64,000 nt of DNA from Candidatus Micrarchaeota archaeon (GCA_021850705.1 JAJZKU010000002.1:2825-66824), one strand, 5' to 3'; positions 5,714 through 44,113 are shown, numbered from the stretch's first letter. Numbers and translations: made by a program. The notes: a model not told the origin generated them from the sequence alone.

Positions 5714-6087
5714 TTCACACTCCTCTTGAAAGATTCAAGCTTCTCCTTTCTCAGTTTGTCAGTATCATCAAGTTCTGTTATGTATACATTTGAAGCGCTA
5801 ATAGGTATCGGAAGCTCCTTGCCCTTTGCATTCTTCCTTACCACTCCGTTTACAGTTACCGTGTACCTCTTCAGGTCAACATCGCTTACCTTTCCTGATT
5901 TGCCCTTTGATGACCCTTTCATCACCATTACAGTATCACCCTTTCTGACAGCTATGCTCCTCTTCTTTATGCCAAGTTTCTCCGAAAGTTGCTTTGATAT
6001 GTGGGCATTGACCATATGCTGCCTGAGGTGCATAGGCGCACTGTATCTGAATATTCTCTGCTTTCTAGGTTTGCCGCTCTCTATCAT
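5710..6087 (-). CDS. rpl24: 50S ribosomal protein uL24
   Basis: KPRKQRIFRYSAPMHLRQHM and KGDTVMVMKGSSKGKSGKV (KOW) motifs. Confidence 0.93.
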   Translation of the reverse strand: MIESGKPRKQRIFRYSAPMHLRQHMVNAHISKQLSEKLGIKKRSIAVRKGDTVMVMKGSSKGKSGKVSDVDLKRYTVTVNGVVRKNAKGKELPIPISASNVYITELDDTDKLRKEKLESFKRSVK

Positions 6088-6498
6088 TCATACCACTCTT
6101 GACGCAATTCCTCCTATCTTGACAAACCTTTCGACTACCTCCCTTGCCATTGCACCCTTTACCTCTGTGCCTATAGGCAGGTTCTCGTCATTTACCATGA
6201 TCCCGGCATTATCCTCAAACTTTACCCTCATGCCATTAGAGCGCCTTATCGAGGCTCTCTGTCTTATTATGACCACACGCACTGGCTTTTTGATATACGT
6301 TGGATTACCCTTTCTGACGCTTGCAGATACTATGTCTCCTACGCCTGCAGCGGTAAGCTTTCCAGGTCTTCCGCCAGTCTTTCCTATTATATGTATCATC
6401 CTGAAGGTATATGCCCCGCTGTTATCTGCGCAGTGTATCTCTGTGCCAGGTATAAGTGTCTTTGTTACTTTTGAAGCTACTCCTTTCATAAAAATCAC
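6088..6498 (-). CDS. rpl14: 50S ribosomal protein uL14
   Basis: EIHCADNSGA motif and operon position. Confidence 0.93.
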   Translation of the reverse strand: MIFMKGVASKVTKTLIPGTEIHCADNSGAYTFRMIHIIGKTGGRPGKLTAAGVGDIVSASVRKGNPTYIKKPVRVVIIRQRASIRRSNGMRVKFEDNAGIMVNDENLPIGTEVKGAMAREVVERFVKIGGIASRVV

Positions 6499-6785
6499 TC
6501 TTTATTCTCAATTCCAGTTATGACGAAGGATTTGGTCTTGCTCAACCGTCTTGTCTCATGCATGTTTACGGTATCACCGAGCTTTGCGTTTATGCACTCC
6601 GGATTGTGTGCAGGTATTCTTGACCTCTTTCTTAAATATCTCTCGTATTTGTATATGTATCTGGTGTAGTCTAGCTTGACTATTGCGGTCTTCTTGACCT
6701 TGTCGCTTACGACTGTGCCAGTCACCAGCATGCCTCTTGTCTTAAGCCCATGGTGAACAGGGCAGTTTTTGTCGTTGCATTCCAG
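6495..6785 (-). CDS. rps17: 30S ribosomal protein uS17 (start uncertain, non-ATG/GTG/TTG)
   Basis: The track ORF 6495..6731 starts at MLVTGTVVSDK. The same frame is open up to 6797 and encodes ...LECNDKNCPVHHGLKTRG, the conserved archaeal S17 CxDxxCPxHG N-terminal motif. The only near-cognate codon upstream of that motif is CTG at 6785-6783. Confidence 0.8.
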   Translation of the reverse strand: MECNDKNCPVHHGLKTRGMLVTGTVVSDKVKKTAIVKLDYTRYIYKYERYLRKRSRIPAHNPECINAKLGDTVNMHETRRLSKTKSFVITGIENKE

Positions 6786-6789
6786 AAAA

Positions 6790-7080
6790 TCACTCTCTCA
6801 TTTTGTAAAACTTCAGGCTTTTTTCTATTCTGTCATACGGCCTGAAATTTATCTCTTCTCCTCTTACTACAAATCTTCTCTTAGACACATTGAACGCGAA
6901 TTTTGAATTCTTCTTTACTATGCTCTTTACGCCTTTGCCATCAAAGACTCTGAGGGTGTTTTTTGTCTCATCGATCACAAGACCGGAGATACCCTTTTGC
7001 TTTTTGTCCAAAGAATCTATGACCTTTACCTTTAGACCTATTAGCTCGTTAATGACGATGTTTCTGTTGCTGTAGTCCAT
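6790..7080 (-). CDS. rnp1: RNase P protein component 1 (Rpp29/Pop4)
   Basis: NELIGLKVKVIDSLDKKQKGISGLVIDETKNTLRV motif, immediately upstream of rps17 as in archaeal S10-spc clusters. Confidence 0.85.
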   Translation of the reverse strand: MDYSNRNIVINELIGLKVKVIDSLDKKQKGISGLVIDETKNTLRVFDGKGVKSIVKKNSKFAFNVSKRRFVVRGEEINFRPYDRIEKSLKFYKMRE

Positions 7081-7105
7081 GATAACCTTAAGCGTATAGT
7101 AAGTG

Positions 7106-7112
7106 TTTAAAT
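7106..7112 (-). promoter_or_regulatory. TATA box (TTTAAAT) for the Rpp29-to-S5 r-protein operon
   Basis: It lies 26-32 nt upstream of the ATG at 7080. The spacing implies a leaderless or very short-leader transcript. Confidence 0.45.
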
Positions 7113-7183
7113 GACCTACTTATTTAAACCTTTTGTTGTTCATCAGAGATTAAGCGCTGCATGTGTTGACGGCACTCTCGCTC

Positions 7184-7720
7184 TCACTTTTTCAATGTAG
7201 CATCGCCCTCCTTCCAGTTCACTGGGCAGAGCCCTCCTGTCTGCAGAGCGGTAACGACCCGGTATGTCTCATCAGTGCTTCTTCCAACATTATCGTGCGT
7301 AACCACTACGTACTTTATAATTCCATCAGGATCTATGACAAACAAACCTCTAAGGGCATTGCCCGTCCTGTCATCATAAACGTCATAAACTCTTGATATT
7401 ATTCCATTCCTGTCAGATGCCAGGTAGTACTGTATGCCCTGCAGCCTCTTGTCTGCCTCTATCCAGGCCTTATGCGTAAAAACGGTATCTGTGCTTACTG
7501 CTATGACCTCGCAGTTCTTGTTTAGGAACTTCTTGTAGTCCTTTGCAAAGCCCTCAAGCTCCGTAGGGCATACAAAGGTGAAGTCTGCCGGGTAGAAAAA
7601 GAGTATTACCCACTTTCCTCTGAAATCGCTCAACTTTATCTTCTTGAAATCATTATCCTTGAATGCCTCAGTCTCGAATGCCGGCGCTTCCTTGTTTATA
7701 AAATTCATTTTATCACTCAC
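7184..7720 (-). CDS. typical 2-Cys peroxiredoxin (AhpC/Tsa family)
   Basis: FFYPADFTFVCPTE peroxidatic Cys motif and GGLCPVNW resolving Cys motif. Confidence 0.92.
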   Translation of the reverse strand: MSDKMNFINKEAPAFETEAFKDNDFKKIKLSDFRGKWVILFFYPADFTFVCPTELEGFAKDYKKFLNKNCEVIAVSTDTVFTHKAWIEADKRLQGIQYYLASDRNGIISRVYDVYDDRTGNALRGLFVIDPDGIIKYVVVTHDNVGRSTDETYRVVTALQTGGLCPVNWKEGDATLKK

Positions 7721-7809
7721 AAATAGAACTTGGTAATATATCTACTAAAGCTAATAAAAACCTTGCTGAAACATGCTTTGCCAATAACTCATGCTATCCT
7801 GACAATGCT

Positions 7810-8325
7810 TCATACAGGTCCTGTATAATTTACATGCTCTCCATACTCTATCGAAAAGGAAGGCGCTGTCTCAAGGACCATATTCCCTATATTGCATATG
7901 CTATTCTGCGACAGAGGTGTCCCGGAATATGTATAATTGACCATTCCGTTAGATATCCAGGACTGTTTAAGTGGAATAAAGGTATTCTTCATCCAGAAGC
8001 ACTGCATCGAATCATTGCTGAATACGAAGAGAATTCCGGCACATTTGCCAAGCCCATTACAATTGCCTATTCCTGATGCATTCATATAGCCGAGCTGCTG
8101 AAGCCTGAGCGTATTAGCTATGTATACGTGATAGGAGGAATTGCCGATATTGAGCGTGCCAACACCAAACTCCATGTTGAGCAATGCTGTGCTGTTGTTA
8201 TTCTCTCTGCCAGTAGCAATGCCTAGCTGACTAAAGTAAACATATGTTATCGAAAATATAAGTAGAATGATGATAAGCATGACAACAATCTGAATCTTGC
8301 CATGACTCATATGATACACTTGCAA
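7810..8325 (-). CDS. membrane-anchored DUF192-like protein
   Basis: N-terminal TM helix. GILFVFSNDSMQCFWMKNTFIPL resembles the DUF192 (COG1430) core GMLF...FWMKNTxIPLD. Confidence 0.55.
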   Translation of the reverse strand: MQVYHMSHGKIQIVVMLIIILLIFSITYVYFSQLGIATGRENNNSTALLNMEFGVGTLNIGNSSYHVYIANTLRLQQLGYMNASGIGNCNGLGKCAGILFVFSNDSMQCFWMKNTFIPLKQSWISNGMVNYTYSGTPLSQNSICNIGNMVLETAPSFSIEYGEHVNYTGPV

Positions 8326-19554: not shown

Positions 19555-19562
19555 TTTAAATA
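19555..19562 (+). promoter_or_regulatory. TATA box TTTAAATA upstream of the small ORF at 19593
   Basis: About 31-38 nt upstream of the ATG at 19593. Confidence 0.35.
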
Positions 19563-19592: not shown

Positions 19593-19790
19593 ATGCACAA
19601 AACCAAAGAAATAACCTCTGAGAGTAAACAGGCAGAAGCAGATTCAACACAGAAAAACCAGAAGGTCACGGTTCTTGATCAGCAGGGCAGATTCTCTTCA
19701 GAACAACGTATAGAAAAGGAGGACACAGATCCGACGGACCTGAGAAGAGGAGGCATGTCCAAGCCCTTCCTTAGGAAGGCTACTTTCTAG
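19593..19790 (+). CDS. small hydrophilic hypothetical protein (65 aa)
   Basis: ORF with a well-placed TATA box; no homology recognised. Confidence 0.35.
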   Translation: MHKTKEITSESKQAEADSTQKNQKVTVLDQQGRFSSEQRIEKEDTDPTDLRRGGMSKPFLRKATF

Positions 19791-19963
19791 ATTCTGAAAT
19801 ATTTACAGCAAGACGAATGCTCTTAGATACTTTTAAATATCACAAAAACCTATCTTCTTCCATCAGTCTTTATGCATTCTTTAATCAACTGACGACCAGA
19901 CAAAATAAGACTAGCTAGAGAAAATGCGTCGTAAAGACCGCGTGTGTTTAACAATCATAAGAG

Positions 19964-20251
19964 ATGAACAATATGAAATTAGTTGAAATATGGAGAGGAA
20001 ATAAAGCTGCAAAAGCAGAAGCAGATGAGGCCATAGCTGCAGGCATAGATGCATTTGTTGCTGCCTTCAGAGATAAATTGAACCTCGGTTCAATAGATAC
20101 AAGTGCAGGGAAGACGCCTTTCGGCACAACAGTCATAGATACTTCTCATGATACTGGCTTTAATCAAGTACCAATATCTAGAATTAAGGTAGCACTGTCT
20201 CAAGAAACACTTCGTTTTCTGCGAAGAAGGCATCAGGAAGATGGCAAATAA
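19964..20251 (+). CDS. hypothetical protein (95 aa), first gene of the beta-helix cluster
   Basis: ORF track; co-directional and tightly spaced with the next four genes. Confidence 0.45.
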   Translation: MNNMKLVEIWRGNKAAKAEADEAIAAGIDAFVAAFRDKLNLGSIDTSAGKTPFGTTVIDTSHDTGFNQVPISRIKVALSQETLRFLRRRHQEDGK

Positions 20252-20266
20252 ACCCCTACTGATTAG

Positions 20267-20914
20267 ATGATACTCTCAAAGAGCAGTACTGCAGACGAAG
20301 CAATCTGTGCGGAAAGGAAAGGCACAGTAGTCATACCTGGTGACCTTGTACTTTATAGAAGTACTAGATATCCTGGAAGCGTCATTGTACAGGGGAATAT
20401 AACAGGATACAGGGGAAGAGGATATAACCTGACTATTCTCGATGGAGATCTTTCTGCACAGGACATAATAATCGGAGACCTTAAACTGTCTGGAAACGTG
20501 AGGGCAAGATCCATAGACGTTCAGAATCTCCGTTGCAACAATGTATCTGCAGTAAGGGAGCTGTACTGTAACAATATATCTGCTGCAAATATCTCTGCAG
20601 ATGAGATATGCGCTAAGAGAGTAAAGGCAGAAGGAGATATCACTGCCCGCATTCTGATATCCCTTGCCAGTATATCTGCAAAGGATCTGCTTGTAGATTA
20701 TGTGAGCGCAGTGAAAGATATAAGCATAAGGAATGCCGAGGCAAAGGACAGCATAATCACAGAAAAGGACATATTCTACAATCTGATATGCCACGCCCAC
20801 AGGAAGGTATGGTACAGGCATGCGTATCCGCAGTTTGAAAATGCTCCTCCCCCATTCGTATCTAATGAGGATATAGATATCAAAAACATCCTTTACAAGG
20901 GAAAAAGAGGTTAA
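20267..20914 (+). CDS. beta-solenoid repeat protein, bactofilin-like
   Basis: Periodic short repeats: GDLKLSGNVRARSIDVQNLRCNNVSAVRELYCNNISAANISADEICAKRVKAEGDITARILISLASISAKDL. Confidence 0.5.
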   Translation: MILSKSSTADEAICAERKGTVVIPGDLVLYRSTRYPGSVIVQGNITGYRGRGYNLTILDGDLSAQDIIIGDLKLSGNVRARSIDVQNLRCNNVSAVRELYCNNISAANISADEICAKRVKAEGDITARILISLASISAKDLLVDYVSAVKDISIRNAEAKDSIITEKDIFYNLICHAHRKVWYRHAYPQFENAPPPFVSNEDIDIKNILYKGKRG

Positions 20915-20918
20915 TTGT

Positions 20919-21353
20919 ATGAAAATAATGAGAACGGATAAACAGAAGGTGCAAGAGACCGTAATAAAAGGCAATCTTGTACTAGAAGGAGATATGTCGT
21001 ACCATGGCAATCTGGTAGTAGAAGGAAGTGTATCTGGCACGTGCGGTTCAAGATTCAACTTAGAAGTAAACGGTGATTTACGTGTATCTGGAAATGTGTC
21101 TGTAAGCAAGTTAACAGTCACAGGTAACATGCATTCCGATGCCAATATCTCAGCAAGATCAATATCTGCCCTTGACATCTCAGCATGCAGCATATCTGCC
21201 AACAGTGTACGTGCGCGTGATATAACAACATGCGAGATTCGTTCATATTCAGTAACTGCACACTCAATATCCCGTAATCCAGAATGCGGGCATGCAGAAA
21301 AGACAAAGGAGCAGTTATTCGTATCTCTTAAGAGGAATCCAATACTATATTAG
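20919..21353 (+). CDS. beta-solenoid repeat protein, bactofilin-like (polymer-forming cytoskeletal DUF583-like)
   Basis: VIKGNLVLEGDMSYHGNLVVEGSVSG...LEVNGDLRVSGNVSVSKLTVTGNMHSDANISARSISALDISACSISANSVRA matches the G-x-hydrophobic periodicity of bactofilin windings. Confidence 0.5.
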   Translation: MKIMRTDKQKVQETVIKGNLVLEGDMSYHGNLVVEGSVSGTCGSRFNLEVNGDLRVSGNVSVSKLTVTGNMHSDANISARSISALDISACSISANSVRARDITTCEIRSYSVTAHSISRNPECGHAEKTKEQLFVSLKRNPILY

Positions 21354-21379
21354 AAGTTCTAAATATATATTAGTAATAA

Positions 21380-22033
21380 ATGATTTACTTGCGTTTAAGG
21401 ATAAACAGTGATAATATGCAGACAATGCAAAAAATGATACAGGAAATAAAGGCAGCACAGCATCCACTGTCACAGGTGCCGATAATTTTCAAGAGATTAA
21501 TAAGAGAGGATGCTCTTGAAGATGGCAAAGGCTCATACGGAGATACTATGGCGCGAAGGCTGACTCCTGTAAAGCTTGAGATACCTGAGGAATATGTACA
21601 TGTGACTCTGAAGCTTGCTGCAATGTCCTTTCTGTTTAATGATGACTTCAGAACAGACCTCTTTATGAATTCCACTACCATGATACAAGGCAAGAGCAGA
21701 ACAAGCGAGGGTTACTTCGAGATACTTGAAAATCATAGGACCAGAGTCGGAACACACGCAAATGGGATATTCAGACCTGTAGATAAATATACTTTCTACA
21801 ACCTACCTACAGAGAAGAGATCATTTCACTTGTGCGGAAGAATTGGCGGTTTATACATAGATGCAGATCCTAAGAGGGGCCTTATAGTGTATACAACTCC
21901 TTTCCACCCTGATGACCTCAGCATAGCGCTAGCAAGAAGGTCAGACCTTGACCCGGTTATATACGGTGAACAAATGTCAAGGGGTAAGGCATTTATTAAT
22001 ACTCTAAAGTCTGTAACAAGAAGATATCTATAA
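21380..22033 (+). CDS. orphan 'LPxxR' family protein, member 1
   Basis: Shares FYNLPTEKRSFHLCG and a C-terminal ...RRYL with 22057..22656, 58623..59099 and 59161..59682. The likely true start is MQTMQKM at 21416. Confidence 0.55.
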   Translation: MIYLRLRINSDNMQTMQKMIQEIKAAQHPLSQVPIIFKRLIREDALEDGKGSYGDTMARRLTPVKLEIPEEYVHVTLKLAAMSFLFNDDFRTDLFMNSTTMIQGKSRTSEGYFEILENHRTRVGTHANGIFRPVDKYTFYNLPTEKRSFHLCGRIGGLYIDADPKRGLIVYTTPFHPDDLSIALARRSDLDPVIYGEQMSRGKAFINTLKSVTRRYL

Positions 22034-22056
22034 TTCTAACAATATATTGGATATTC

Positions 22057-22656
22057 TTGATAAATATTGGTGGTAGTATTACCATAATAAAGGAGTATAC
22101 GAAAGAGATAAAGCCGGTATTCATATCTGATGATAAAGTAACCCCAGCAGAGCTTAAGGGTGCTATGAGAAAGGGATGCAGGGAGGCTACTCCTGCAGAA
22201 ATTGCATTAATGTATGTGTATGGCGACTTTCTCCAAGATAATTTTGGTCTGGTCTTTGCTAATGAGTTGCACGAGAAAGGGGCGGTGCGGACATCAATAA
22301 AAGGACTAGGTGGGAGATATGGCTATCATGAGATACAAAACAACGGTTCCTTCACACATATAACTGATATTGCTAAATTTGCCAAACTCCCTTCACAAAG
22401 ACGCGCACTGCTTATTCCAGGGGATAGTTATCTGATGTTCGGATGCCATCTTCCGTATACTGATGGGGATCCGGACGCATACCTAAAAGTATCAGCTGAC
22501 GATTTTGACGATATGACCCAGATTGTCCGCATAGATCCAAAGACAAAGTCCGTAAAAAGGCTTGATCTGGATCCTGAGCTGAAGAAGCATCATTTTGCAT
22601 ATGTAAAAGATGATAGCGAGATGGTTCTGATCAAGGCACGCAGGTATTTAGAGTGA
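22057..22656 (+). CDS. orphan 'LPxxR' family protein, member 2
   Basis: PVFISDDKV...CREATPAEIALMY and FAKLPSQRRALLIPG align with the paralogs at 58.6-59.7 kb. Confidence 0.55.
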   Translation: MINIGGSITIIKEYTKEIKPVFISDDKVTPAELKGAMRKGCREATPAEIALMYVYGDFLQDNFGLVFANELHEKGAVRTSIKGLGGRYGYHEIQNNGSFTHITDIAKFAKLPSQRRALLIPGDSYLMFGCHLPYTDGDPDAYLKVSADDFDDMTQIVRIDPKTKSVKRLDLDPELKKHHFAYVKDDSEMVLIKARRYLE

Positions 22657-23320
22657 TACTAATAATATTTTAGCTATTCTAAATAAATGTTAGATTACTT
22701 ATACTGATCAGGAATTAATGCCTTTTCTTTCCATATTATTGAATTATAATAGTATATATGTATTAAACAATTGATTTCCAAAATACTGGTACAAATCAAC
22801 AACAGCTTAAAGTCATGTATTTCAGATTTATGGAAAATAAGGGCTTTCTGTGAAGCCATCCATATTATTGTAAAAAACAGGATAAAAATAATGCTTTTCC
22901 TCGTGCTTGTATTTTTCTGCCAGATCTATGGAAGATACATTAAAGTTATCAATAATATGGAATTTTGATAAACAGGCTTGTAAAGGCCGGGATTTTACAA
23001 GGAAGAACCATGCCCAAATCTCCGACGACAAATTTTGCGCAGAATTGCGTTTTAAGAAATGATTATCAGTACATCAAATAAAAACCAGGTAGGAGCGACA
23101 TGTTCTTTAAACTCAAATAAAAGCACGTTATATAATTACTAATAATATATGAGAAATACTAATATAATATTAGAATACTACTGCTATGCAAAAGTGCTAC
23201 AATTCATATTTGCAATAATAAGATGAAAAGACAGAAGATAAAACTCCTGCCAGAACTGGATCCATCTCCAGCTTATATTAAGCTACCAATATCCTGATCC
23301 TATTATCCCTTTTTATACCT

Positions 23321-23803
23321 TCATCTACGGTGTCCCATCCAGATACGGCCTCCGTCCCTATCTCCATAATATCTATATGGCATATCTCCATAGCCTCTGT
23401 CATAATCATAATCCGGTGCTCTATAACCATAGTTCAATATTCTTCCTCCATAGTCATAATCAGGTACGGTGTAACTATAGTTAGGTACTGTATAATCGTA
23501 GCTATACCCGTAACCAGGTATTGCTCCAGGATTATAATATGGTAAAACCCCTCCATAATTGTAATACCATCCTCCATTCGGATAGCTGTATGGGTTTGTC
23601 TCACTATAAACTATCTGCCCGTCAGTATATCCTCCAACCATGCCTACCTGTCCGTAAAAAGGCACACAGCCTGATACTGAAGCGGTAGCTGCCAATGCTG
23701 CTCCTACTACTGCCACCTTTCTGACAGCTTCTTTAAACGTACTTGATCTCGCTTTCTGCTCACCTACAGTTGTAGAATCAGTAACTCTTGCCATTGTTTT
23801 CAT
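23321..23803 (-). CDS. Tyr/Gly/Pro-rich secreted protein with lipobox-like signal anchor
   Basis: N-terminus ...TFKEAVRKVAVVGAALAATASVSGC, then low-complexity repeats (YSYDYTVPNYSYTVPDYDYGG...). Confidence 0.6.
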   Translation of the reverse strand: MKTMARVTDSTTVGEQKARSSTFKEAVRKVAVVGAALAATASVSGCVPFYGQVGMVGGYTDGQIVYSETNPYSYPNGGWYYNYGGVLPYYNPGAIPGYGYSYDYTVPNYSYTVPDYDYGGRILNYGYRAPDYDYDRGYGDMPYRYYGDRDGGRIWMGHRR

Positions 23804-23961
23804 TATACCACATACAACTTGTGGTTTTTACCATTGATAAAGATTTTTTGGTGAACGACAAACGACTAAATGGATATTTACAAGATGCAGGATCATCTGC
23901 CGACTGCTAACTGCAATAAATAAAAAGAAAGGGCAGATGCCTGGCACCTGCCCATAACTGT

Positions 23962-24498
23962 CTACTCTATCTTCCAGCTGCCATCAGGCTGTTGGCACGC
24001 AACTCCTTTTATCGTCTGTGCCTGCCCGCCTATGAAACCTGTCGTGACATAGCTTCTGCATACCTGCCCAGCTGCCTGTCCATTCTGCGGTACATACTGC
24101 TGTGTAGGGGTTACGCTATACCTGTTTCCATATGGGTTTGTCCAGACAGTCGTCCTGCCTACAGGGTTTTCAGTTATTGCATTATATGCATTTATCTGGT
24201 CCTGCCTGTCCATGCTCCTGCCTATGGAACCACCTATGTAAGCTCCTGCAAGCGTTCCTATTATAGTGGCTGCAGCCCTTCCTTCTCCCTGTCCTATCTG
24301 GCTTCCAATCACTCCTCCTAGGACTCCTCCAACTAACTGGCCATTCTGCTGGTATGTTGCGCATCCTGCTGCAGATACTGCAACAACCGCTCCTACCACT
24401 GCGCCTCTCACAGCGTTCTTGAATGTATCTACTCTCTTATTCCATTCCTTATGCGCTGCTCCTGTATTTCTCTCGCTGCTCTTTTGTTTTGTCTCCAT
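23962..24498 (-). CDS. glycine-zipper / 17-kDa-surface-antigen-like lipoprotein
   Basis: N-terminus ...TFKNAVRGAVVGAVVAVSAAGC (lipobox-like). Glycine zipper GGVLGGVIGSQIGQGEGRAAATIIGTLAGAYIGGSIG. The C-terminal domain contains conserved Cys residues. Confidence 0.7.
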   Translation of the reverse strand: METKQKSSERNTGAAHKEWNKRVDTFKNAVRGAVVGAVVAVSAAGCATYQQNGQLVGGVLGGVIGSQIGQGEGRAAATIIGTLAGAYIGGSIGRSMDRQDQINAYNAITENPVGRTTVWTNPYGNRYSVTPTQQYVPQNGQAAGQVCRSYVTTGFIGGQAQTIKGVACQQPDGSWKIE

Positions 24499-24550: not shown

Positions 24551-25033
24551 CTACTCTTTATTATCTGAATTCAGGTAGCCTTTTATTGTACGTGTATACT
24601 TTACTGCGTTGTTATCCGTGTCAGGCTCTGCGCTTCTTCTCAATTCCTTCAGAAGCTCATTATGCTCTTCGTCAAGCTGTTCATATATCTCCTTTATCAT
24701 CGCACTATGATCGCTGTCAGTTACAGTAAATTCATCAGTAGATACAGTAACGGAGTATCTATACCAGCTATCAAAATGTCCCTCATAGTATTTTTTCATC
24801 AACTTTACTGCAACATCTATGCCTTCTACCCGTACACTGCCTGAATAGCTGCCTAACTGATCTGTCTTAGGATCAGGCGCATCGTACTGCCATGTGCTGA
24901 CCATCTTTGCAAGCTTAAATGCCTCTACGCCTGTCAAGGAATGCATTTCGCGATACTCTTCGCTTACCTCTCTTTTAACCGTGGCTATCTCCTCTTCTCT
25001 CAATGCTACTCTTCCTATTCTTTTTGTCTCCAT
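24551..25033 (-). CDS. orphan protein, tandem copy A (160 aa)
   Basis: Differs from copy B at two residues. Confidence 0.7.
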   Translation of the reverse strand: METKRIGRVALREEEIATVKREVSEEYREMHSLTGVEAFKLAKMVSTWQYDAPDPKTDQLGSYSGSVRVEGIDVAVKLMKKYYEGHFDSWYRYSVTVSTDEFTVTDSDHSAMIKEIYEQLDEEHNELLKELRRSAEPDTDNNAVKYTRTIKGYLNSDNKE

Positions 25034-25085
25034 TATATCACGTTAAAATAACTCCTAATAGATTAAAGCATATTCCTTAAATGGA

Positions 25086-25568
25086 CTACTCTTTATTATC
25101 TGAATTCAGATAGCCCTTTATTGTACGTGCATACTTTACTGCATTGTTATCCGTGTCAGGCTCTGCGCTTCTTCTCAATTCCTTCAGAAGCTCATTATGC
25201 TCTTCGTCAAGCTGTTCATATATCTCCTTTATCATCGCACTATGATCGCTGTCAGTTACAGTAAATTCATCAGTAGATACAGTAACGGAGTATCTATACC
25301 AGCTATCAAAATGTCCCTCATAGTATTTTTTCATCAACTTTACTGCAACATCTATGCCTTCTACCCGTACACTGCCTGAATAGCTGCCTAACTGATCTGT
25401 CTTAGGATCAGGCGCATCGTACTGCCATGTGCTGACCATCTTTGCAAGCTTAAATGCCTCTACGCCTGTCAAGGAATGCCTTTCGCGATACTCTTCGCTT
25501 ACCTCTCTTTTAACTGTGGCTATCTCCTCTTCTCTCAATGCTACTCTTCCTATTCTTTTTGTCTCCAT
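25086..25568 (-). CDS. orphan protein, tandem copy B (160 aa)
   Basis: Near-identical to copy A, 535 bp away. Confidence 0.7.
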   Translation of the reverse strand: METKRIGRVALREEEIATVKREVSEEYRERHSLTGVEAFKLAKMVSTWQYDAPDPKTDQLGSYSGSVRVEGIDVAVKLMKKYYEGHFDSWYRYSVTVSTDEFTVTDSDHSAMIKEIYEQLDEEHNELLKELRRSAEPDTDNNAVKYARTIKGYLNSDNKE

Positions 25569-25625
25569 TATATCACGTTCAAAAATCCTAACTAGATTAA
25601 AGCATATTAATTAAAAGGACTACTC

Positions 25626-26114
25626 TTAATTATCCGATTTCAGATAGCCCTTTATTGTACGTGCATACTTTACTGCATTGTTATCCGTGTCAGGCTCTAT
25701 GCCTCTTCTCAATTCCTTCAGAAGCGCATTATGCTCTGCGTCAAGCTGTTCATATAGCTCTCTTATCATCGGTCTGACATTATACCCTCTGTCAGTTCCA
25801 GTAAATTCATCAGTAGATACGGTAACGGAGTACATGTGCTCGATACCTCCAAACTCTCCAACACAGCGTTCTTTCATCAGCTTTACTGCAACATCTATGC
25901 CCTCTACGCATACATTGCCTGAATAGCTGCCTACCTGCTCTGCCTTCTTAGGATCAGGTCCATAGTACTGCCATGTGCTGACCATCTTTGCAAGCTCAAA
26001 GGCTTCTACGCCTGTCAAGGAATGCTTTCTGCGATACTCTTCGTTTACTCCTCTCTTCATTTCATTTATCTCATCTCCTCTCAATGCTACTCTTCCTATG
26101 CTCTTTGTTTCCAT
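25626..26114 (-). CDS. orphan protein, tandem copy C (diverged)
   Basis: The track ORF runs to 26135. The internal METKSIGRVALRGDEI... aligns with the METKRIGRVALREEEI start of copies A and B. Confidence 0.65.
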   Translation of the reverse strand: METKSIGRVALRGDEINEMKRGVNEEYRRKHSLTGVEAFELAKMVSTWQYYGPDPKKAEQVGSYSGNVCVEGIDVAVKLMKERCVGEFGGIEHMYSVTVSTDEFTGTDRGYNVRPMIRELYEQLDAEHNALLKELRRGIEPDTDNNAVKYARTIKGYLKSDN

Positions 26115-26135
26115 AATACCATCATTAAAAATCAA

Positions 26136-26483
26136 TTACTTCCTCACTTCTTTCTTCAGCTCCTTCTTGTGCTTGACATAGACGTTCCTCATCGTAAGCG
26201 CATGCGAGCATGGGTTTCCGTAGAAGTGTGCAGAGGTGCAGGTGCATCTGCTCTCAGCTATGTCATTGCCTTTTGACAGCCTCATCTTCACCCCGAAGTA
26301 TGTGCCTCCGTGCTCCTCACTCTCAACATATCCCTTAATCAGATGTGAACCCGGGGTTATTCCGCCATGTATCTCCTTTATCCTAACGCTTTTGTCGTAG
26401 CTCTCTATAATGAAGCTCTCCTTACTGACCTGCGCTGTAGGATATGTAACAGGCCTGTACTTTGCTCTTACCGATTCCTGCAT
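26136..26483 (-). CDS. small SWIM zinc-finger protein
   Basis: CTCTSAHFYGNPCSHAL is a CxCx(n)CxH SWIM signature. A paralog lies at 47396..47755. Confidence 0.75.
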   Translation of the reverse strand: MQESVRAKYRPVTYPTAQVSKESFIIESYDKSVRIKEIHGGITPGSHLIKGYVESEEHGGTYFGVKMRLSKGNDIAESRCTCTSAHFYGNPCSHALTMRNVYVKHKKELKKEVRK

Positions 26484-30012: not shown

Positions 30013-30978
30013 ATGAAAGAAAATCAAGCAGGCAGTACTTCAGAAGGGAAGAGAATCAGAATGCTGATGACTATGGGTAATGATGAGAAGGAGATAGGAA
30101 TAGTGGGATTAGGCAGTATGGGACTTAACATATCAAAGGTACTGCTAAGGAATGGATATGCTCTTACTGTGTATAACAGGAGTGTCGATAAATACGCGCA
30201 TTTTAATGACAGTGAAGAGGTGACGTGCACAAGCAGCATGGACGAATTCGCAGAAAAGCTCCAGCAGAAAGGAAAGGATGCGATCGTATGGATGATGCTG
30301 CCCGGAGGCGAACCTACAAACAGCATGCTCTCAGAGTTGTCGTCAATTCTGAACAAAGGAAGCGTAATAATAGACGGATCAAATTCCGATTCTGCAGACT
30401 CTGTATCAAACTACAATAAGCTGCGTGGTAAAGGCATAGAGTATCTTGACGTCGGTGTTGCAGGAGGCCCGGACGATGTTCTGAAAGGAGTGGCGATAAT
30501 GGCAGGCGGAGATAAGGAGACATTTGATAAAGTCAAGGAGATATTACAGGAAGTTGCAGGAGGAAGGGAGAGATGCGGATATGTCGGAGAGAGCGGAAGC
30601 GGTCACAGGCTAAAGGCAGCACACAATTCAATCTTCTATTCCATATTTCCAATATTTGCCGAGACGGCTGCGGCGGTAATCGAACAGAACAACGGAGACA
30701 AGGAGACGGCAGAAGAGTCCCTCAGGCTCCTCAGCATAGCTCCTCCAATAACAAAAGGTATACCTGAAGCCATACTAAACGCTTTCAGGAGCGGCGAACT
30801 CTTCAAAGAAGCTCCAAAAGTATCTGTATCTAAGATGGTAAGCTCATATGTGGACAGCGCCGAGAAGAAGGGCACACCACTTGATATAACCAAAGAGGTG
30901 CTGAAGAGCTACCCGGAAATGCGCGACAGCACCAAGAAAGTGTATTCAGGAGCCAAGAAGATACTGACAGGGCATTAG
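30013..30978 (+). CDS. 6-phosphogluconate dehydrogenase-like (short Gnd/YqeC-type) NAD(P)-binding dehydrogenase
   Basis: Rossmann motif IGIVGLGSMGLN. Also YLDVGVAGGPDDVLKGVAIMAGGD and GESGSGHRLKAAHNSI. The start may be one of the internal Met codons before the Rossmann motif. Confidence 0.7.
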   Translation: MKENQAGSTSEGKRIRMLMTMGNDEKEIGIVGLGSMGLNISKVLLRNGYALTVYNRSVDKYAHFNDSEEVTCTSSMDEFAEKLQQKGKDAIVWMMLPGGEPTNSMLSELSSILNKGSVIIDGSNSDSADSVSNYNKLRGKGIEYLDVGVAGGPDDVLKGVAIMAGGDKETFDKVKEILQEVAGGRERCGYVGESGSGHRLKAAHNSIFYSIFPIFAETAAAVIEQNNGDKETAEESLRLLSIAPPITKGIPEAILNAFRSGELFKEAPKVSVSKMVSSYVDSAEKKGTPLDITKEVLKSYPEMRDSTKKVYSGAKKILTGH

Positions 30979-32255
30979 CCGTTGGCAGCCTGCTGGCTTA
31001 GTTTTGCTTTCTTGGAGTAGTGCGACTCTACATATTTCTCAAGGTGCTTCTTGAATTCCTCAGTTGCAATATCAGCCTTTACTGCGGCAACCTGCTTGCC
31101 GTCTTCATATATGAGGCATGAAGGATTCTCTCCGCTGCCAGGGAGTGATATGCCTATCTGGGCCATTCTTGACTCTCCTGGTCCGTTTACAACGCAGCCC
31201 ATGACTGCAACCTTCATCTCCTCTACGCCGTCATATCCGGAGCTCTTCCATTCAGGCATGCGCTCCTGCAGATATCCTGTAAGATCCTCTGCCATCTCCT
31301 GGAAGGTTGTAGATGTCGTCCTTCCGCATCCCGGGCAGCTCGTTACCAAAGGCGAAAAGTGCCTTATGTCAAGCGACTGAAGAATCTGCCTGCATACTTT
31401 TACCTCTTCAGCCCTGCTCGATCCAGGAGTCGGCGTAAGCGATACTCTTATCGTGTCCCCTATTCCCTGTGTAAGTAGCAATGACAGTGCTGCCGATGAC
31501 GCTGCAACTCCCTTGCTCCCTATTCCTGCTTCAGTTAGCCCAAGATGAAGTGGCTGTTCTATCCTCGAGGAAAGCATCTCATATGCCTTTACCATCTTTG
31601 AAACTTCTGAAATCTTGGTGCTGACTATTATCTTGTTAGGCTCCATTCCATACTCTATGGCCTTATTGACCGACTGTACAGCACTCTCGACGACAGCTCC
31701 GACCATTATGTCATCTGCGCTCTTCTGCACAGCTGCCTTTGTATTGTCATCCATCATCTTAGTAAGCACTGTTGGGTCAAGCGACCCCCAGTTAACGCCT
31801 ATTCTTACAGGTTTGTCATGATCCTTTGCAACATCGAGTATCGCCTTGAAGTTATCGTCATGCTTCTCCCCGAAGCCTACATTCCCAGGGTTTATCCTGT
31901 ACTTGTCAAGAGCATCTGCACACGAAGGAACCTCCCTGAGCAGCTGATGCCCGTTGTAATGGAAGTCGCCTATCAACGGTATGTTGTAACCGAGATCGTC
32001 AAGCGCCTTCCTTATGTCTGTTACTGCGCGTGCCATCCTCAGATTCTGTACGGTGAACCTGACGAGCTCCGAACCTGCCTTATGCAGCTCTATTATCTGT
32101 GCCACTGTTGCCGTTACGTCTCCTGTATCGGTATTGGTCATGCTCTGTATCGCAACAGGGTGCTCTGACCCTATATACATGTCCCTTACTCTTACCTGCA
32201 AGCTCTTTCTCCTTGGTCTCCAGTCTGTATCTTTTTTCATGCTTATTGTTGCCAT
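30975..32255 (-). CDS. ispG: 4-hydroxy-3-methylbut-2-en-1-yl diphosphate synthase (MEP pathway)
   Basis: PVAIQSMTNTDTGDVTATVAQI, YRINPGNVG, PLHLGLTEAG, GIGDTIRVSL and CPGCGRT motifs align along the whole length with bacterial GcpE. Confidence 0.92.
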   Translation of the reverse strand: MATISMKKDTDWRPRRKSLQVRVRDMYIGSEHPVAIQSMTNTDTGDVTATVAQIIELHKAGSELVRFTVQNLRMARAVTDIRKALDDLGYNIPLIGDFHYNGHQLLREVPSCADALDKYRINPGNVGFGEKHDDNFKAILDVAKDHDKPVRIGVNWGSLDPTVLTKMMDDNTKAAVQKSADDIMVGAVVESAVQSVNKAIEYGMEPNKIIVSTKISEVSKMVKAYEMLSSRIEQPLHLGLTEAGIGSKGVAASSAALSLLLTQGIGDTIRVSLTPTPGSSRAEEVKVCRQILQSLDIRHFSPLVTSCPGCGRTTSTTFQEMAEDLTGYLQERMPEWKSSGYDGVEEMKVAVMGCVVNGPGESRMAQIGISLPGSGENPSCLIYEDGKQVAAVKADIATEEFKKHLEKYVESHYSKKAKLSQQAANG

Positions 32256-32259
32256 ATGC

Positions 32260-33207
32260 TCACATACTCCTTGAAAGAGGTCTGTTGAGTTCGTAAGGCA
32301 TGGTGAATTTCATATTCTCCTTTATCGCTTGCACGCTCTCTACCGTAGCGCCACGATCCTTGAAGTACTGTGCAAGCTCCTGGACAAGATATTCGGGAGC
32401 GCTTGCCCCTGCAGAAATCCCCACTGTCTTCTTGCCTTCAACCCACTCCTCCTTAAGCTCACTTACGCTGTCTATAAGATACGCATCGACTCCAAGCGCC
32501 TTTGCTGTATCAGCTAACCTGTTTGAGTTTGAAGAGTTCTTGCTGCCAAGAACAAATACAACATCACACCTGCTTGCAGCCTGTTTTATAGCTCCCTGCC
32601 TGTTTGTAGTTGCATAGCATATGTCAGAAGATGGCGGAGCCTTGAGCTGCGGGAATCTCTTCTTAAGTGCATCTATGACTCCCATACACTCGTCTACAGA
32701 GAGTGTAGTCTGTGTCAGATATGCAAGCTTCGAAGGATCCTTCACTTTTATATCCTTGACCTCTTCAGGCGTCTCAACTATCTGTGTTATGTCTGGTCTT
32801 ATCCCCATCACGCCCATAGCTTCAGGATGATTCCTGTGTCCTATGTACAATATCTCAAGGCCTTCCTTTGCAAACCTTCCTACTTCAATATGTATCTTCG
32901 ATACAAGAGGGCATGTGGCATCTATGGTAGAGAGCTTCCTCGCTCTTGCCTCCTCCCTTATCTTCGGCGCTATTCCGTGCGCAGAGAAGACGCAGATGCT
33001 CCCTTCAGGTATCTCAGATATCTCCTCTACGAATATCGCCCCTTTCTTACGCAGTGCATCGCACACCGTCTTGTTATGCACTATCTCGTGCTTCACATAT
33101 ATTGGTGCACCGAAGTTCGCAATCGCTTCTTCCACAGTATCTACTGCACGCTCCACTCCTGCACAGAATCCTCTTGGTTCTATCAAAATTACCTTTTCAA
33201 CACTCAT
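32260..33207 (-). CDS. ispH: 4-hydroxy-3-methylbut-2-enyl diphosphate reductase (MEP pathway)
   Basis: PRGFCAGVERAV, FSAHGIAP and DATCPLVSKIH motifs are typical LytB. Confidence 0.92.
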   Translation of the reverse strand: MSVEKVILIEPRGFCAGVERAVDTVEEAIANFGAPIYVKHEIVHNKTVCDALRKKGAIFVEEISEIPEGSICVFSAHGIAPKIREEARARKLSTIDATCPLVSKIHIEVGRFAKEGLEILYIGHRNHPEAMGVMGIRPDITQIVETPEEVKDIKVKDPSKLAYLTQTTLSVDECMGVIDALKKRFPQLKAPPSSDICYATTNRQGAIKQAASRCDVVFVLGSKNSSNSNRLADTAKALGVDAYLIDSVSELKEEWVEGKKTVGISAGASAPEYLVQELAQYFKDRGATVESVQAIKENMKFTMPYELNRPLSRSM

Positions 33208-33373
33208 CTTACTCCCTTATTATTTCTGGCTGTATTACGACTGATTATCCCTCACAGATTTATAACTATATGCGGCTACCGAATTATTTATAATAGAATA
33301 CCTGTTAATGGCATATGACGAAATATTATTAGACAGTACCGTGTACCTTCTGTAATTATCCGTGCGTCATCTT

Positions 33374-34630
33374 TTATTCATTAACTGCACTTTTGGAGAG
33401 AACCTCATTGTAATTATGCGTCACATACTTTCTTGCCCATGAGTCTGCCTCTATTATCTGTTCTAGTGTAGGCTCCTTATTGACAGAATGGGAATCTAGT
33501 GCGCTCTCTATCAGCTTTGGCATATCTGTAAACCTTATTCTCCCATTGCAGAAGAGCTCCACAGCTGTTTCGTCCGCACCATTCAGTACGGCAGGCGCGC
33601 TCCCGCCAAGCCTCCCTGCCCTGTATGCAAGGGCTATACTTGGGAAGCGCTCAATATCAGGCTCTTCAAAATCAAACCTCCCTATCTTTGAGAGCTCAAG
33701 CCTCTTCAGTCCCGTGTCTATCCTGTATGGATAGGTAAGCGCATACGCTATCGGATATCTCATATCGTGAGGTCCCTGCTGTACCTTTTGGCTTCCGTCT
33801 ATCAACTGGACGCCAGAATGGACTATACTCTGAGGATGCACTACTATCCTTACTTTATCAACATCAACCCCGAATATAGATGCTATCTCTATTACTTCCA
33901 TCCCCTTGTTCATGAGCGTTGCAGAACGTATCGTTATCAGCCTGCCCATGTCCCATGTAGGATGCTTCAAAGCCTGCTGCACAGTAGCCTTGTCAAGTTC
34001 ATCCTTCTTCCACTCTCGGAAAGGACCCCCTGAACAGGTGAGTATGAAATGGCCTATGTTGTTCTTTGCGCCTCTGTGCAGATGCCATATCGCACTGTGC
34101 CTGTCTTCCGAAGCATATATCTCAGGCTCCAATGTCTGCCATATCGCATTCGGTTCGCTGTCTATCGGCAGTATCTCTACATTATGCCTCTTTGCAGCTT
34201 CCGTTATCAGCCTGCCTGCAGTCAGGAAGGCCTCCTTGTTTGCTACCGGCACAGTATTTCCTGCTTCAATAGCTGCAAGTGTCGGTGCAAGTCCTGCAAA
34301 TCCTGCAGTCGCTATAACCACATATCCGTTGCTTATGCTCATGCAAAGATCCACCGCTTCCTGTTCCCCGGACAGTATAGTGGTCTTAATCCCCTTCCCG
34401 GAAAGCCGCATCCTGAGCTCCTTTGCTTTATCATCATTGACTACTACTGCTCTTTCAGGGCTGAACTCCAGAATCTGCTTCTCAAGAATGTCTATGTTGC
34501 TATTGCATGCCAATCCGTATACTTTGAAGTTTCGTTTGCCTGAGAGTCTTTTAACAACGTCAAGCGTCTGCGTCCCTATCGAACCGGTAGAACCATGTAT
34601 TACCAATGGTATCTCGTCATCCATAGCCAC
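33374..34630 (-). CDS. dxr: 1-deoxy-D-xylulose 5-phosphate reductoisomerase (MEP pathway)
   Basis: HGSTGSIGTQTLDV, ANKEAFLTAG, PIDSEPNAIWQ and LKHPTWDMG motifs. Confidence 0.92.
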   Translation of the reverse strand: MAMDDEIPLVIHGSTGSIGTQTLDVVKRLSGKRNFKVYGLACNSNIDILEKQILEFSPERAVVVNDDKAKELRMRLSGKGIKTTILSGEQEAVDLCMSISNGYVVIATAGFAGLAPTLAAIEAGNTVPVANKEAFLTAGRLITEAAKRHNVEILPIDSEPNAIWQTLEPEIYASEDRHSAIWHLHRGAKNNIGHFILTCSGGPFREWKKDELDKATVQQALKHPTWDMGRLITIRSATLMNKGMEVIEIASIFGVDVDKVRIVVHPQSIVHSGVQLIDGSQKVQQGPHDMRYPIAYALTYPYRIDTGLKRLELSKIGRFDFEEPDIERFPSIALAYRAGRLGGSAPAVLNGADETAVELFCNGRIRFTDMPKLIESALDSHSVNKEPTLEQIIEADSWARKYVTHNYNEVLSKSAVNE

Positions 34631-37778: not shown

Positions 37779-38363
37779 TCATACCGATGTCGAAGCTGTC
37801 GTATATACTGTAGTCGTAGATACAGATACTGTCTGAGAAGTTGTCCATAGCATAACGCGCAGCTCTGCAGGAACTCCATTATCCAAGATTACAGGAGTGT
37901 CTTGAACCACTACTGTAGTGGCATTATATGCCAGAGGATTTGGCCCTATGGTAAGGTTGTACAACTGCGGCGAGTAAATGACTATATAATAGTTATAGCT
38001 TACTCCAAGAAGCTGTTTTGATGCATCATAGTTGATTAGAGATAAGGCATAGAGCTTTGCTATCTTTGCTTCTGACAACCTGCCGCCTGTGCTGCTTGCA
38101 AGTCCTATGCTGGTATTTGTCCATGTTGACAGGTTTGCCGGATCTACTGAATAATACCAGTTGGAAGGAGTTCCTGTTGTCAACAGTCTGTTGGTAAGCT
38201 GCTGCATATCTGACTGCATATTACCATATGCATTCGAGTATGTTATAGAAAACTGCTGCGACACATTAAACCAGACATAGGTAAGAATAACCATGGTTAT
38301 TGCAAATATCACTATCGCAAAGATCATATCCATAGACCAGAATTGCAGCTTCATGTTCCCCAA
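37779..38363 (-). CDS. pilin-like protein (class III signal-like N-terminus)
   Basis: MKLQFWSMDMIFAIVIFAITMVILTYVWF is a short basic N-terminus plus a hydrophobic helix. Sequon-rich, with a Thr/Ser-rich C-terminus. A 13-nt overlap with the upstream giant gene suggests an operon. Confidence 0.6.
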   Translation of the reverse strand: MGNMKLQFWSMDMIFAIVIFAITMVILTYVWFNVSQQFSITYSNAYGNMQSDMQQLTNRLLTTGTPSNWYYSVDPANLSTWTNTSIGLASSTGGRLSEAKIAKLYALSLINYDASKQLLGVSYNYYIVIYSPQLYNLTIGPNPLAYNATTVVVQDTPVILDNGVPAELRVMLWTTSQTVSVSTTTVYTTASTSV

Positions 38364-41300: not shown

Positions 41301-41698
41301 CTTGCAACAGGCATGTTGTATGTATGAATGGCATTAGGGGATTCGTACTGTTGCGAGGAAATTACTCTGGCTACAGGAGCATAAGCATAAGCGTACGAAA
41401 GCTTTCCAGTAGCATTATTATACACTATTACCGTCCCTGAGGAAGTGATAGATAGGTTATAATTCACAAGACCTGCGCCTGAAGGAAGGCTGACATTCTG
41501 AGCATACCCGTTGCCTAAAGATGATGCGGTATTTATATCCTGTGCTATTGTCTGCGCTATTACCTGCAGCTGCGCATAATCCTGCTGCTGCGACTGCTCA
41601 ACGCGCTGCGTCGCTACCAAGCCGAATATCAGAACGAATATTATCAGCACGAACGAGAATACTATTACATAATCTATTGAGAGTTGGGCCTTTACCAT
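38351..41698 (-). CDS. giant pilin-signal protein with multiple LamG (concanavalin A-like lectin) modules
   Basis: The likely start is MVKAQLSIDYVIVFSFVLIIFVLIF (track ORF extends to 41725). There are four WWPLN(G/T)N... inter-module linkers (e.g. LVGWWPLNGNANDYSGNGNNG), each preceded by a ..LQIYSTALNSNQI..-type LamG_3 C-terminal strand. Confidence 0.8.
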   Translation of the reverse strand: MVKAQLSIDYVIVFSFVLIIFVLIFGLVATQRVEQSQQQDYAQLQVIAQTIAQDINTASSLGNGYAQNVSLPSGAGLVNYNLSITSSGTVIVYNNATGKLSYAYAYAPVARVISSQQYESPNAIHTYNMPVASGLIYLQNSHGDICIDYVCNTTYAQGSGLDVYTKVTHVAQMNGQDSYIYVANSPSLLQPFVYNAITMSAWVYVKQLPPSSGHMAVVNYGTSQQGSYCFGPMIYVSNNNIYGGFQNINRGSSEAFLPIKSNTWYFVAWTYSDATNKLALYVNGRKTIANGVVPLDSASYIYNLVLGSTDYTYNSGQGACQSGTPFSGSVSDLQIYSTALNSNQITQLQNGGINGAPVRSDNLSAWWPLNGNANDYSGNGNDGRAYQVVYPTVAQIYANVTNVTLSPVKGDLVGFSSTLGSFEGNGQSASNFTNNNGIATAFLMQTNNTGYANVKVTPFEGNAYTAKNLSGWWPLNTNQGNVIFNFANSLDPGTLENGYWNNVNYVGQFTGYDSYVNVADSASLDPTNSVTLAAWVYPKRYSADNRNGAGIIAKGLQYEISINASGYAVMDGVLASTPIYSGVKVPIGEWSFVVGSLNSNGTATICVNTACRSNSGTGSNLVVSKSPLYIGYGTILPGAVGTYFNGAIANAQVYDASLSESQISLLYHEGISGMPLLGGLVGWWPLNGNTNDYSSNNDNGFGTGSFRFVSQNMQQTVPNNTARFLATGFSHADGSYMAVNNIKNYADVLTTGSFTITAWIKLNSCTGWESVAGDSSASTGFQFYACTDAAALEYVLLVGGQIVKWTGYGGNGLPSFPLNTWEMVTAEYNGSTGQVTVYLDNTTADSAMLSAHLNLAQSVPFDIGNSYSSGEAYALNGSMANVQLYSVPLSKKEVSMLYNSGIYGMPRPNDGLVGWWPLNGNANDYSGNGNNGTENATTYEYLVNPSAIPSLNSYGVSSLGSGNAIVADNHNYQHFSIASWVYLDQPVSGPGVYLGTPGSSNYGLFRTSSKQGFTVGGGSATSNNVTTFPIGKWTYVVGTFDGKNVSYYADGVLLAKGTSSSGIPSSPIIVGPNLAGSVANIEYYNVSLTSGQVYQLYNNQLPITYTEQIPLSWGT

Positions 41699-44091: not shown

Positions 44092-44113
44092 TGTTCTTTA
44101 TGGATGATTGTTT

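Follow-up and report, generated by a model that had tools for sequence, protein, structure and literature searches.

A conserved Micrarchaeota operon of bactofilin-like proteins and members of a probable lectin-fold family

Within a 64,000-nt stretch of DNA from a Candidatus Micrarchaeota archaeon (GCA_021850705.1, JAJZKU010000002.1:2825-66824; hereafter the window), six genes at 19593-22656 form a chromosomal operon of one Micrarchaeota clade. Two of them encode bactofilin-like proteins, here named B215 and B144, and two others, LP217 and LP199, belong to a multi-copy protein family, LPxxR, which has no Pfam model and probably adopts a C-type-lectin-like fold. One further LPxxR protein, from a different contig, is targeted by a diversity-generating retroelement (DGR). 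Our tentative proposal is that the bactofilin-like proteins could form a membrane-bound scaffold, with the lectin-fold proteins as its clients or adaptors.

A conserved six-gene operon

The initial annotation had described this locus as a cluster of five genes. The open reading frames (ORFs) that it listed are all present and agree with public gene calls, which we compared on contigs encoding a 217-aa protein identical to that of the window, but the conserved unit comprises six genes, with a 65-aa ORF at 19593 kept in every relative. All six lie on one strand, and the public calls give lengths of 65, 92, 215, 144, 217 and 199 aa. The 65-aa gene is followed by a spacer of 182 nt, after which the gaps from the 92-aa gene through to LP199 measure 15, 4, 26 and 23 nt. 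Two TATA-like boxes can be read from the sequence: TTTAAATA on the plus strand at 19555-19562, ~31 nt 5' of the 65-aa ORF, which is a candidate archaeal promoter, and TTTTAAATAT at 19831-19840, between the 65-aa and 92-aa genes. No transmembrane segment or signal peptide was found in any protein of the cluster, and all the genes are under purifying selection, with ratios of nonsynonymous to synonymous substitution rates (dN/dS) of 0.12-0.35.

Among the genes of the window are those for archaeal ribosomal proteins, EF-1alpha, S10 and deoxyhypusine synthase. It is a chromosome of the Micrarchaeota (DPANN), because ten syntenic genes share 84-99% amino-acid identity with those of Candidatus Micrarchaeota archaeon DBS1-1.bin141 (L028). 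Among more diverged relatives, the cluster follows a divergent gene for a major facilitator superfamily (MFS) transporter, with proteins of 64, 92, 215, 146 and 203 aa in L009, of 72, 92, 215 and 212 aa in L011, of 64, 92, 220 and 206 aa in L012, and of 67, 95, 212, 143 (an unrelated protein), 217 and 191 aa in L015. The B215-type and LP217-type genes are adjacent, tightly spaced and co-directional in five of the five diverged relatives, at B215 identities down to 47%, while the fourth (B144) and sixth (LP199) genes are optional.

The first two genes encode small basic proteins, neither of which matched Pfam. The product of the first, c65 (19593-19790, plus strand, from the public calls), is very hydrophilic (65 aa, isoelectric point 9.2) and has the conserved motif TVLDxQGRFS...DLRRGGxxKPFLRK; its orthologues, 64-72 aa long, are called in all relatives, with identities of 42-69% and dN/dS of 0.17-0.35. 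The second, c92 (19973-20251, plus strand), is called as 92 aa from the ATG at 19973, with a possible start at 19964 that would give 95 aa. It begins with a helix-like segment rich in Ala, Glu and Lys, is likewise called in all relatives, and evolves fast (identity 22-36%) under purifying selection (dN/dS 0.12 for L009 against L012).

An Rfam scan returned nothing in the cluster and a single tRNA at 55447, and so identified no non-coding RNA in the locus. A 308-aa antisense ORF overlapping B215 and B144 (20276-21202, minus strand) was rejected, since the public calls and purifying selection in the plus frame favour the plus-strand genes; it is most likely a by-product of repetitive codon content in the bactofilin-like genes.

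Bactofilin-like proteins

Bactofilins are recognized by a right-handed triangular beta-helix of about six windings and by nucleotide-independent, non-polar filaments. Both B215 and B144 had been put forward as bactofilin-like, and a search with the Pfam bactofilin family PF04519 upheld this directly for B144 (20919-21353, plus strand, 144 aa), which scored 35.4 bits against a cut-off of 27.9 (E 1.3e-8). Its orthologues matched the same family in eight of eight cases (E<1), and one of them is named 'cytoskeletal protein CcmA (bactofilin family)' by one source (JGI). B215 (20267-20914, plus strand, 215 aa) has no direct match and is assigned to the bactofilins indirectly, through its homology to B144 (blastp E 3.5e-9; profile-profile comparison by hhalign, probability 97%, E 7e-11 over 55 columns). 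The glycine-hydrophobic windings and xISAxxI runs first noted in B144 and B215 are indeed present. Hydrophobic autocorrelation of the bactofilin-like proteins peaks at lags 5 and 15-16, which fits three-faced windings of ~16 residues, and there were weak matches to the FapA beta-solenoid and to tail fibres.

B215 begins with MILSKSST, and its orthologues with MIFSK, MFSKK or MAFSK. This MI(L/F)SK peptide resembles, at the level of sequence, the peptide MFSKQAKS that targets bactofilins to the membrane, and also the global consensus of such peptides, MFSKKKK (PMC12448750). B144 starts with MKIMRTDKQK and so lacks a peptide of this type. At its other end, B215 carries a conserved C-terminal extension, ICHAHRK..YRHAYPQFENAP..FVSNEDIDIKN. 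It is the best-conserved protein of the cluster, with 79-80% identity where LP217 has 63-64%; its orthologues are 47-93% identical, with dN/dS of 0.13-0.19.

The B144 gene looks like a shortened duplicate of B215. It is absent from L011-L014, and in L015 its slot is taken by an unrelated 143-aa repeat protein (L015:6814-7245) that has GVQ..L.N-type repeats and no Pfam match. The bactofilin-like family as a whole was detected only in this clade.

The LPxxR family

LP217 (21380-22033, plus strand), identified by the family profile and blastp, is a divergent LPxxR protein with an N-terminal extension and a C-terminal RRYL; its true start is probably the ATG at 21416 (MQTMQKM), as in most orthologues, and its dN/dS is 0.19-0.32. 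LP199 (22057-22656, plus strand), identified in the same way, has a TTG start and ends in RRYLE. An orthologue of LP199 is present in L015, the most distant relative (59% identity), and the gene is missing from L009 and L012; one orthologue, P0044, matched the family profile at E 1.8e-24. Two further copies, LP158 (58623-59099, plus strand) and LP173 (59161-59682, plus strand), belong to the same multi-copy family outside the bactofilin operon. LP158 lies directly after EF-1alpha and S10, and this position is conserved in L018-L020 and L028.

The four window proteins had been described as paralogs sharing three motifs. Their paralogy is well supported: in an all-against-all blastp of the window ORFs, LP217 matched LP173 at E 6e-7 and LP158 at E 2e-6, LP199 matched LP173 at E 8e-8, and LP158 matched LP173 at E 1e-18, all well above chance. 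LP217 and LP199 matched each other directly at E 0.002 only, and both join the one family profile that unites all four. The motifs are less evenly shared. (F/Y)xxLPxxxR(A/S) occurs in all four proteins, but P(D/E)GYRxxTLxEV is intact only in LP158, as PDGYRIITLKEV, and in LP173, and is degenerate in LP217 (PEEYVHVTLKLA) and LP199 (RKGCREATPAEI), while the C-terminal RRYL is confined, among the window paralogs, to LP217 and LP199. We considered RRYL as an HbYX-like proteasome tail and dropped the idea, as Arg precedes Tyr and LP199 orthologues do not retain the motif.

Beyond the window, a word-indexed search of 5.8 billion proteins returned 19 LPxxR clusters, all unnamed, and a HMMER search of 1.84 billion representatives returned 106 at E<=1e-3, of which 57 reached E<=1e-10, with a shared core of ~125 residues; the resulting family size of ~106 counts clusters at 50% identity. 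A scan of one genome per species gave ten loci, in nine Candidatus Micrarchaeota metagenome-assembled genomes (MAGs) and one MAG labelled Euryarchaeota, and of two metagenome scans one was empty and the other added a single 1.3-kb locus. No member was found in 2.9 million viral contigs. No Pfam family was matched convincingly by the 111 members scanned, the multi-domain members P0086, P0115, P0126 and P0135 carried no Pfam domain that hints at function, and LPxxR profiles found no match among PDB sequences. Members are small (median 176 aa) and have mixed isoelectric points (median 8.2), and a strongly hydrophobic segment was flagged in 7 of 119. They are probably cytoplasmic, because they have no signal peptide and no conserved disulfide cysteines. 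There are several copies per genome, often in tandem pairs, which occur twice in the window and once each in L032 and L033.

The genomic contexts of other members vary. LPxxR genes lie before the L3 operon (L3-L4-L23-L2) in L021/L024 (L021:8001-8609), after S11 (L026:7001-7585), beside aIF5B (L029:6992-7633) and near diphthamide synthase (L025:6980-7567); others lie beside an integrase and a reverse transcriptase, or beside SMC and FtsZ. The repeated proximity to translation genes may reflect small, translation-rich genomes, or a real link.

The fold of the family was predicted with AlphaFold2 for LP173. Using a 111-sequence alignment, this gave a model with a predicted local distance difference test score (pLDDT) of 88.1 and a predicted template modelling score of 0.79, in which two main helices and two beta-sheets are followed by a helical tail. 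Foldseek placed C-type lectin domains in all of the top five positions against the PDB, at E 0.034-0.46 and probabilities of 0.23-0.85 (at least 0.5 for four of the five): ovocleidin-17 (E 0.034, probability 0.85), MCL, echicetin, collectin-11 and an endocytic receptor. The C-terminal domain of Legionella Lcl (DUF1566, 8q4e) ranked 15th, with a template modelling (TM) score of 0.43 and the lowest root-mean-square deviation among the lectin-fold matches (5.3 A). Against BFVD, the best matches were BZLF2-like (probability 0.91) and UL45 proteins, both lectin-like. The LPxxR fold is thus probably C-type-lectin-like, an assignment that is consistent but weak. An earlier model of LP217, built from 19 sequences, reached a pLDDT of 57 and gave meaningless Foldseek matches (cyclic-nucleotide-binding domains, E>2); it was replaced by the LP173 model.

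A retroelement that targets a family member

On contig L034 (ENA ERZ25039472 contig_94796), the LPxxR protein P0090 is the target of a DGR at 5992-8015, with an integrase upstream and a HicA gene downstream. Its variable region (6345-6446) lies at the end of the lectin-like domain, and the template repeat (6847-6951) lies just upstream of the reverse-transcriptase ORFs, the enzyme being split between 6982-7404 and 7551-8015. Within an 81-nt core, 14 of the 18 mismatches between the repeats fall on template adenines (hypergeometric P ~8e-7), as do 16 of 20 over 105 nt. The reverse transcriptase carries LGNLTSQ and YVDD, both characteristic of DGR enzymes. This is one case; the contigs of the further LPxxR members that were examined for DGRs were too short to judge.

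Most DGR variable regions occupy the C-terminal end of a C-type lectin fold, one class of which is DUF1566, and DGRs are abundant in DPANN archaea (PMC5758913). That P0090 is a DGR target therefore provides independent support for the lectin fold of the LPxxR family. The relation to DUF1566 and C-type-lectin-fold proteins that had been raised speculatively for these genes gains from this target and from the lectin folds that head the PDB and BFVD matches, but not from the Pfam profiles of such domains, none of which matched.

In the window itself, we found no homologue of a reverse transcriptase at E<=10, nor any at E<=0.01 after L034 had been included, and no template and variable repeats involving any LPxxR gene. 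A 217-aa protein identical to LP217 is encoded on 12 contigs from different samples, and for this reason the window copies are not undergoing diversification.

Function of the operon

We propose that B215, together with B144 where it is present, would assemble independently of nucleotide into a polymer on the cytoplasmic side of the membrane, and that this polymer would act as a positional scaffold. LP217 and LP199, as lectin-fold proteins, would be the clients or adaptors of the scaffold and would hold a specific ligand through a variable C-terminal face, the one subject to diversification by a retroelement in a relative. We put the probability of this whole model at roughly 0.45. In a broader version of it, the lectin-fold proteins would be cytoplasmic binding proteins of a family that is peculiar to DPANN Micrarchaeota and has expanded there; retroelements would hypermutate some members, and two would be wired, in one clade, to a membrane-bound bactofilin polymer, which together would provide a positioned and evolvable binding platform, for example at the host contact site of episymbionts; taken as a whole, that picture is improbable.

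Several observations weigh against the scaffold model. On the bactofilin side, the PF04519 match of B144 spans profile positions 1-66 of 98, or two thirds of the domain, none of 12 B215 orthologues matched PF04519 at E<1, and the B215 and B144 profiles found no solved bactofilin among PDB sequences at E<=10; the putative beta-solenoid fold of the two proteins is taken from homology and not from a structure model. On the lectin side, DUF1566 (PF07603), Lectin_C (PF00059) and FGE-sulfatase (PF03781) were matched by none of 111 LPxxR members at E<0.1, and all Foldseek E-values exceed 0.03, with TM-scores of 0.3-0.46, below 0.5. As regards the tie between the two families, synteny extends over the entire neighbourhood in the clade (DNA topoisomerase VI, LonB, MazG, the MFS transporter and others), so that the mere fact of the genes having stayed adjacent says little about a functional link; the short gaps speak more strongly for coupling than synteny does. 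LP217 has a TATA-like box of its own at 21360-21369, and so do the genes of the LP158/LP173 region. Lastly, the pairing of the two families is conserved in all five diverged relatives examined; outside the clade, neither a clade-built profile nor Pfam scans of selected flanking genes revealed a bactofilin-like neighbour of an LPxxR gene, and it follows that the two families do not co-occur generally.

The synteny of the entire region and the TATA-like box of LP217 also fit a reading in which the operon's genes are neighbours without a shared function, the LPxxR proteins being a scattered multi-copy family of ligand-binding proteins or sensors kept beside the bactofilin by general synteny. The same reading would account for the many unrelated contexts of LPxxR genes (S10, L3, S11, aIF5B, integrase/reverse transcriptase, SMC/FtsZ), for the tandem pairs elsewhere (L032, L033), and for LP199 and B144 coming and going across lineages. 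It sits less easily with gaps of 4-26 nt and a single orientation kept in five of five diverged relatives, or with LP217 orthologues having been seen only beside B215 and B215 only beside LP217. Moreover, LP217 and LP199 share the RRYL end and a degenerate GYR motif, both absent from the other paralogs, which suggests specialisation. On balance we regard mere neighbourhood as rather unlikely, although it is the main rival to the scaffold model.

It is quite improbable that the LPxxR family is linked to translation, as ribosome- or factor-associated proteins of which the cluster copies would be derived paralogs. Members do lie beside translation genes, mostly co-directionally, in several lineages (the window, L018, L028, L021/L024, L026, L029 and L025), but DPANN genomes are small and rich in such genes, the S10 and L3 positions may represent one ancestral site, and the genes of the LP158/LP173 region have their own TATA-like boxes. 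Some members neighbour an integrase and a reverse transcriptase, and others SMC and FtsZ; the isoelectric points of the family vary (median 8.2), and a lectin fold diversified by a DGR would be ill-suited to a conserved ribosomal role.

That the operon is a defence system or the cargo of a mobile element, in the form of DGR-related or phage-derived beta-helix fibres with receptor-binding proteins, is very improbable. In its favour, the one LPxxR member known to be targeted by a DGR has an integrase and a gene for the toxin HicA beside it, and both B215 and B144 bear a faint likeness to a PHROG of tail fibres and to a tail-fibre protein of solved structure. Against it, PADLOC returned no match, the likeness to the PHROG amounts to weak matches between repeats (E 1e-3 to 7e-3), and no reverse transcriptase, template repeat, integrase or other phage-like gene lies near the cluster in the window. 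The cluster also occupies a fixed, syntenic place in the chromosome, the 2.9 million viral contigs yielded no LPxxR member, and the identity of LP217 on 12 contigs from different samples argues against hypervariation.

The second beta-helix pair

Two paralogous proteins near LP158 and LP173, at 60666-61307 and 61396-61914 on the minus strand (blastp E 1e-11 between them), are probably left-handed beta-helix proteins of the hexapeptide/YdcK-like type, as judged from Pfam and from their homologues, and are unrelated to bactofilins. Their own matches fall below curated cut-offs (LbH_EIF2B, E 2e-5; YdcK_fam, E 5e-8; hexapeptide), but most of 73 homologues carry PF18836, PF00132, PF25087 or PF25084, and some are named 'isoleucine patch superfamily'. 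Each of the two has a unique N-terminal region of ~60 aa.

This pair underlies the claim, made in the initial annotation, that the same two-family combination of beta-helix and LPxxR proteins occurs twice within 40 kb as a duplicated module. Both LPxxR pairs do have two beta-helix-type proteins within 2 kb, and both arrangements are conserved in close relatives. At the sequence level, however, the claim is contradicted: the second helix pair has no blastp similarity to B215 or B144 and an hhalign probability of 1%, one pair being bactofilin-like and the other probably left-handed. Since, in addition, the second pair lies on the strand opposite LP158 and LP173, beyond the deoxyhypusine synthase gene, the supposed second copy is not a copy of the module. 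No such pairing was seen in other Micrarchaeota, and a duplicated module is scarcely credible.

Adjoining this second helix pair is a gene for a 395-aa protein (61981-63168, minus strand) whose thermopsin match is marginal (25.7 bits; cut-off 25); L018-L020 and L028 keep the arrangement.

Neighbouring genes

Immediately 3' of the cluster lies a 660-nt AT-rich stretch (22657-23320) with no conserved ORF and no Rfam match; the corresponding slot is variable in relatives, holding a 302-aa gene in L012 and a 1199-aa gene in L013. It is followed on the minus strand (23321-24498) by genes for two small proteins, each with a hydrophobic stretch ending in Cys (lipobox-like), one Tyr/Gly-rich and the other with glycine-zipper domains (PF05433, PF13488); relatives keep both in this place just 3' of the cluster. 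Three tandem paralogous ORFs of 160-169 aa without a Pfam match come next (24551-26483, minus strand), two of them 98.75% identical, adjoined by a 115-aa SWIM zinc-finger protein that has a 46%-identical paralog 21 kb away (47396-47755, plus strand).

Farther along, Dxr, IspH (LytB) and IspG (GcpE) lie in a row at 30975-34630 (minus strand), with strong Pfam matches. These are bacterial-type genes of the methylerythritol phosphate (MEP) pathway, and MEP-pathway genes have been reported as horizontal acquisitions in several Micrarchaeota orders (PMC12892359). Three very large proteins (1124, 742 and 1077 aa) encoded at 38351-47341 have pilin-like hydrophobic N-termini and shared repeats, and two of them carry Laminin_G_3/concanavalin-A-like lectin and pentaxin domains; they are probable surface adhesins.

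Comparison with known systems

To our knowledge, experimental work on archaeal bactofilins has so far been confined to the halofilins of Haloferax, and a literature search found no paper linking bactofilins with Micrarchaeota. Archaeal bactofilins themselves were known already (PMC11459167), as were, as a class, lectin-fold DGR targets in DPANN; the LPxxR family is without a Pfam model. A conserved DPANN bactofilin operon with candidate clients offers a handle on envelope organisation in ultra-small symbiotic archaea, and LPxxR proteins are candidates for recognising host, virus or self specifically, in organisms whose genes of this kind mostly lack annotation. Should the link between bactofilin and LPxxR proteins not be functional, the operon would be one more of the lineage-specific clusters of hypothetical proteins that are common in DPANN.

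The beta-helix proteins at 60666 and 61396 compare most readily with YdcK and hexapeptide helices of the isoleucine-patch superfamily, since they and their homologues match YdcK-solenoid, hexapeptide and LbH families; they differ in that their own matches lie below the cut-offs and in their N-terminal regions.

With the lectin-fold variable proteins of DGRs, and with Lcl (8q4e), the LPxxR proteins share a predicted helix-plus-sheet fold whose best matches are lectin domains. Their strand-helix motif GYRQATLEEV recalls WRLPTxxEL of DUF1566, and P0090 has an adenine-mutagenised C-terminal variable region beside a template repeat and a reverse transcriptase. Unlike those proteins, LPxxR members show no similarity at the HMMER level to DUF1566, Lectin_C or FGE-sulfatase, lack a signal peptide and conserved disulfide cysteines, and have a helical tail after the domain; the four copies of the window have no nearby retroelement and are invariant between samples.

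The halofilins HalA and HalB of Haloferax volcanii resemble B215 and B144 in belonging to the bactofilin superfamily of archaea, with a presumed role as membrane scaffolds (PMC11459167). The halofilin survey covers mostly Euryarchaeota, does not mention DPANN in its main text, and describes no lectin-fold partner (PMC11459167). Compared by description, HalA fuses two bactofilin domains and has a helical hairpin, and HalB has another architecture, unlike the proteins reported here.

The likeness to bacterial bactofilins extends to a small putative beta-solenoid with a PF04519 match, to two paralogs encoded side by side, to the N-terminus of B215 (Met, two hydrophobic residues, Ser, Lys) and to the presence of co-encoded candidate partners. 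In Caulobacter, the bactofilins BacA and BacB recruit PbpC, a precedent for bactofilins with a client protein. The Micrarchaeota operon differs in its DPANN archaeal host and in B215, which escapes detection by Pfam and is extended by a long, conserved C-terminal stretch. Here, the candidate partners are soluble proteins with a predicted lectin fold rather than cell-wall enzymes.

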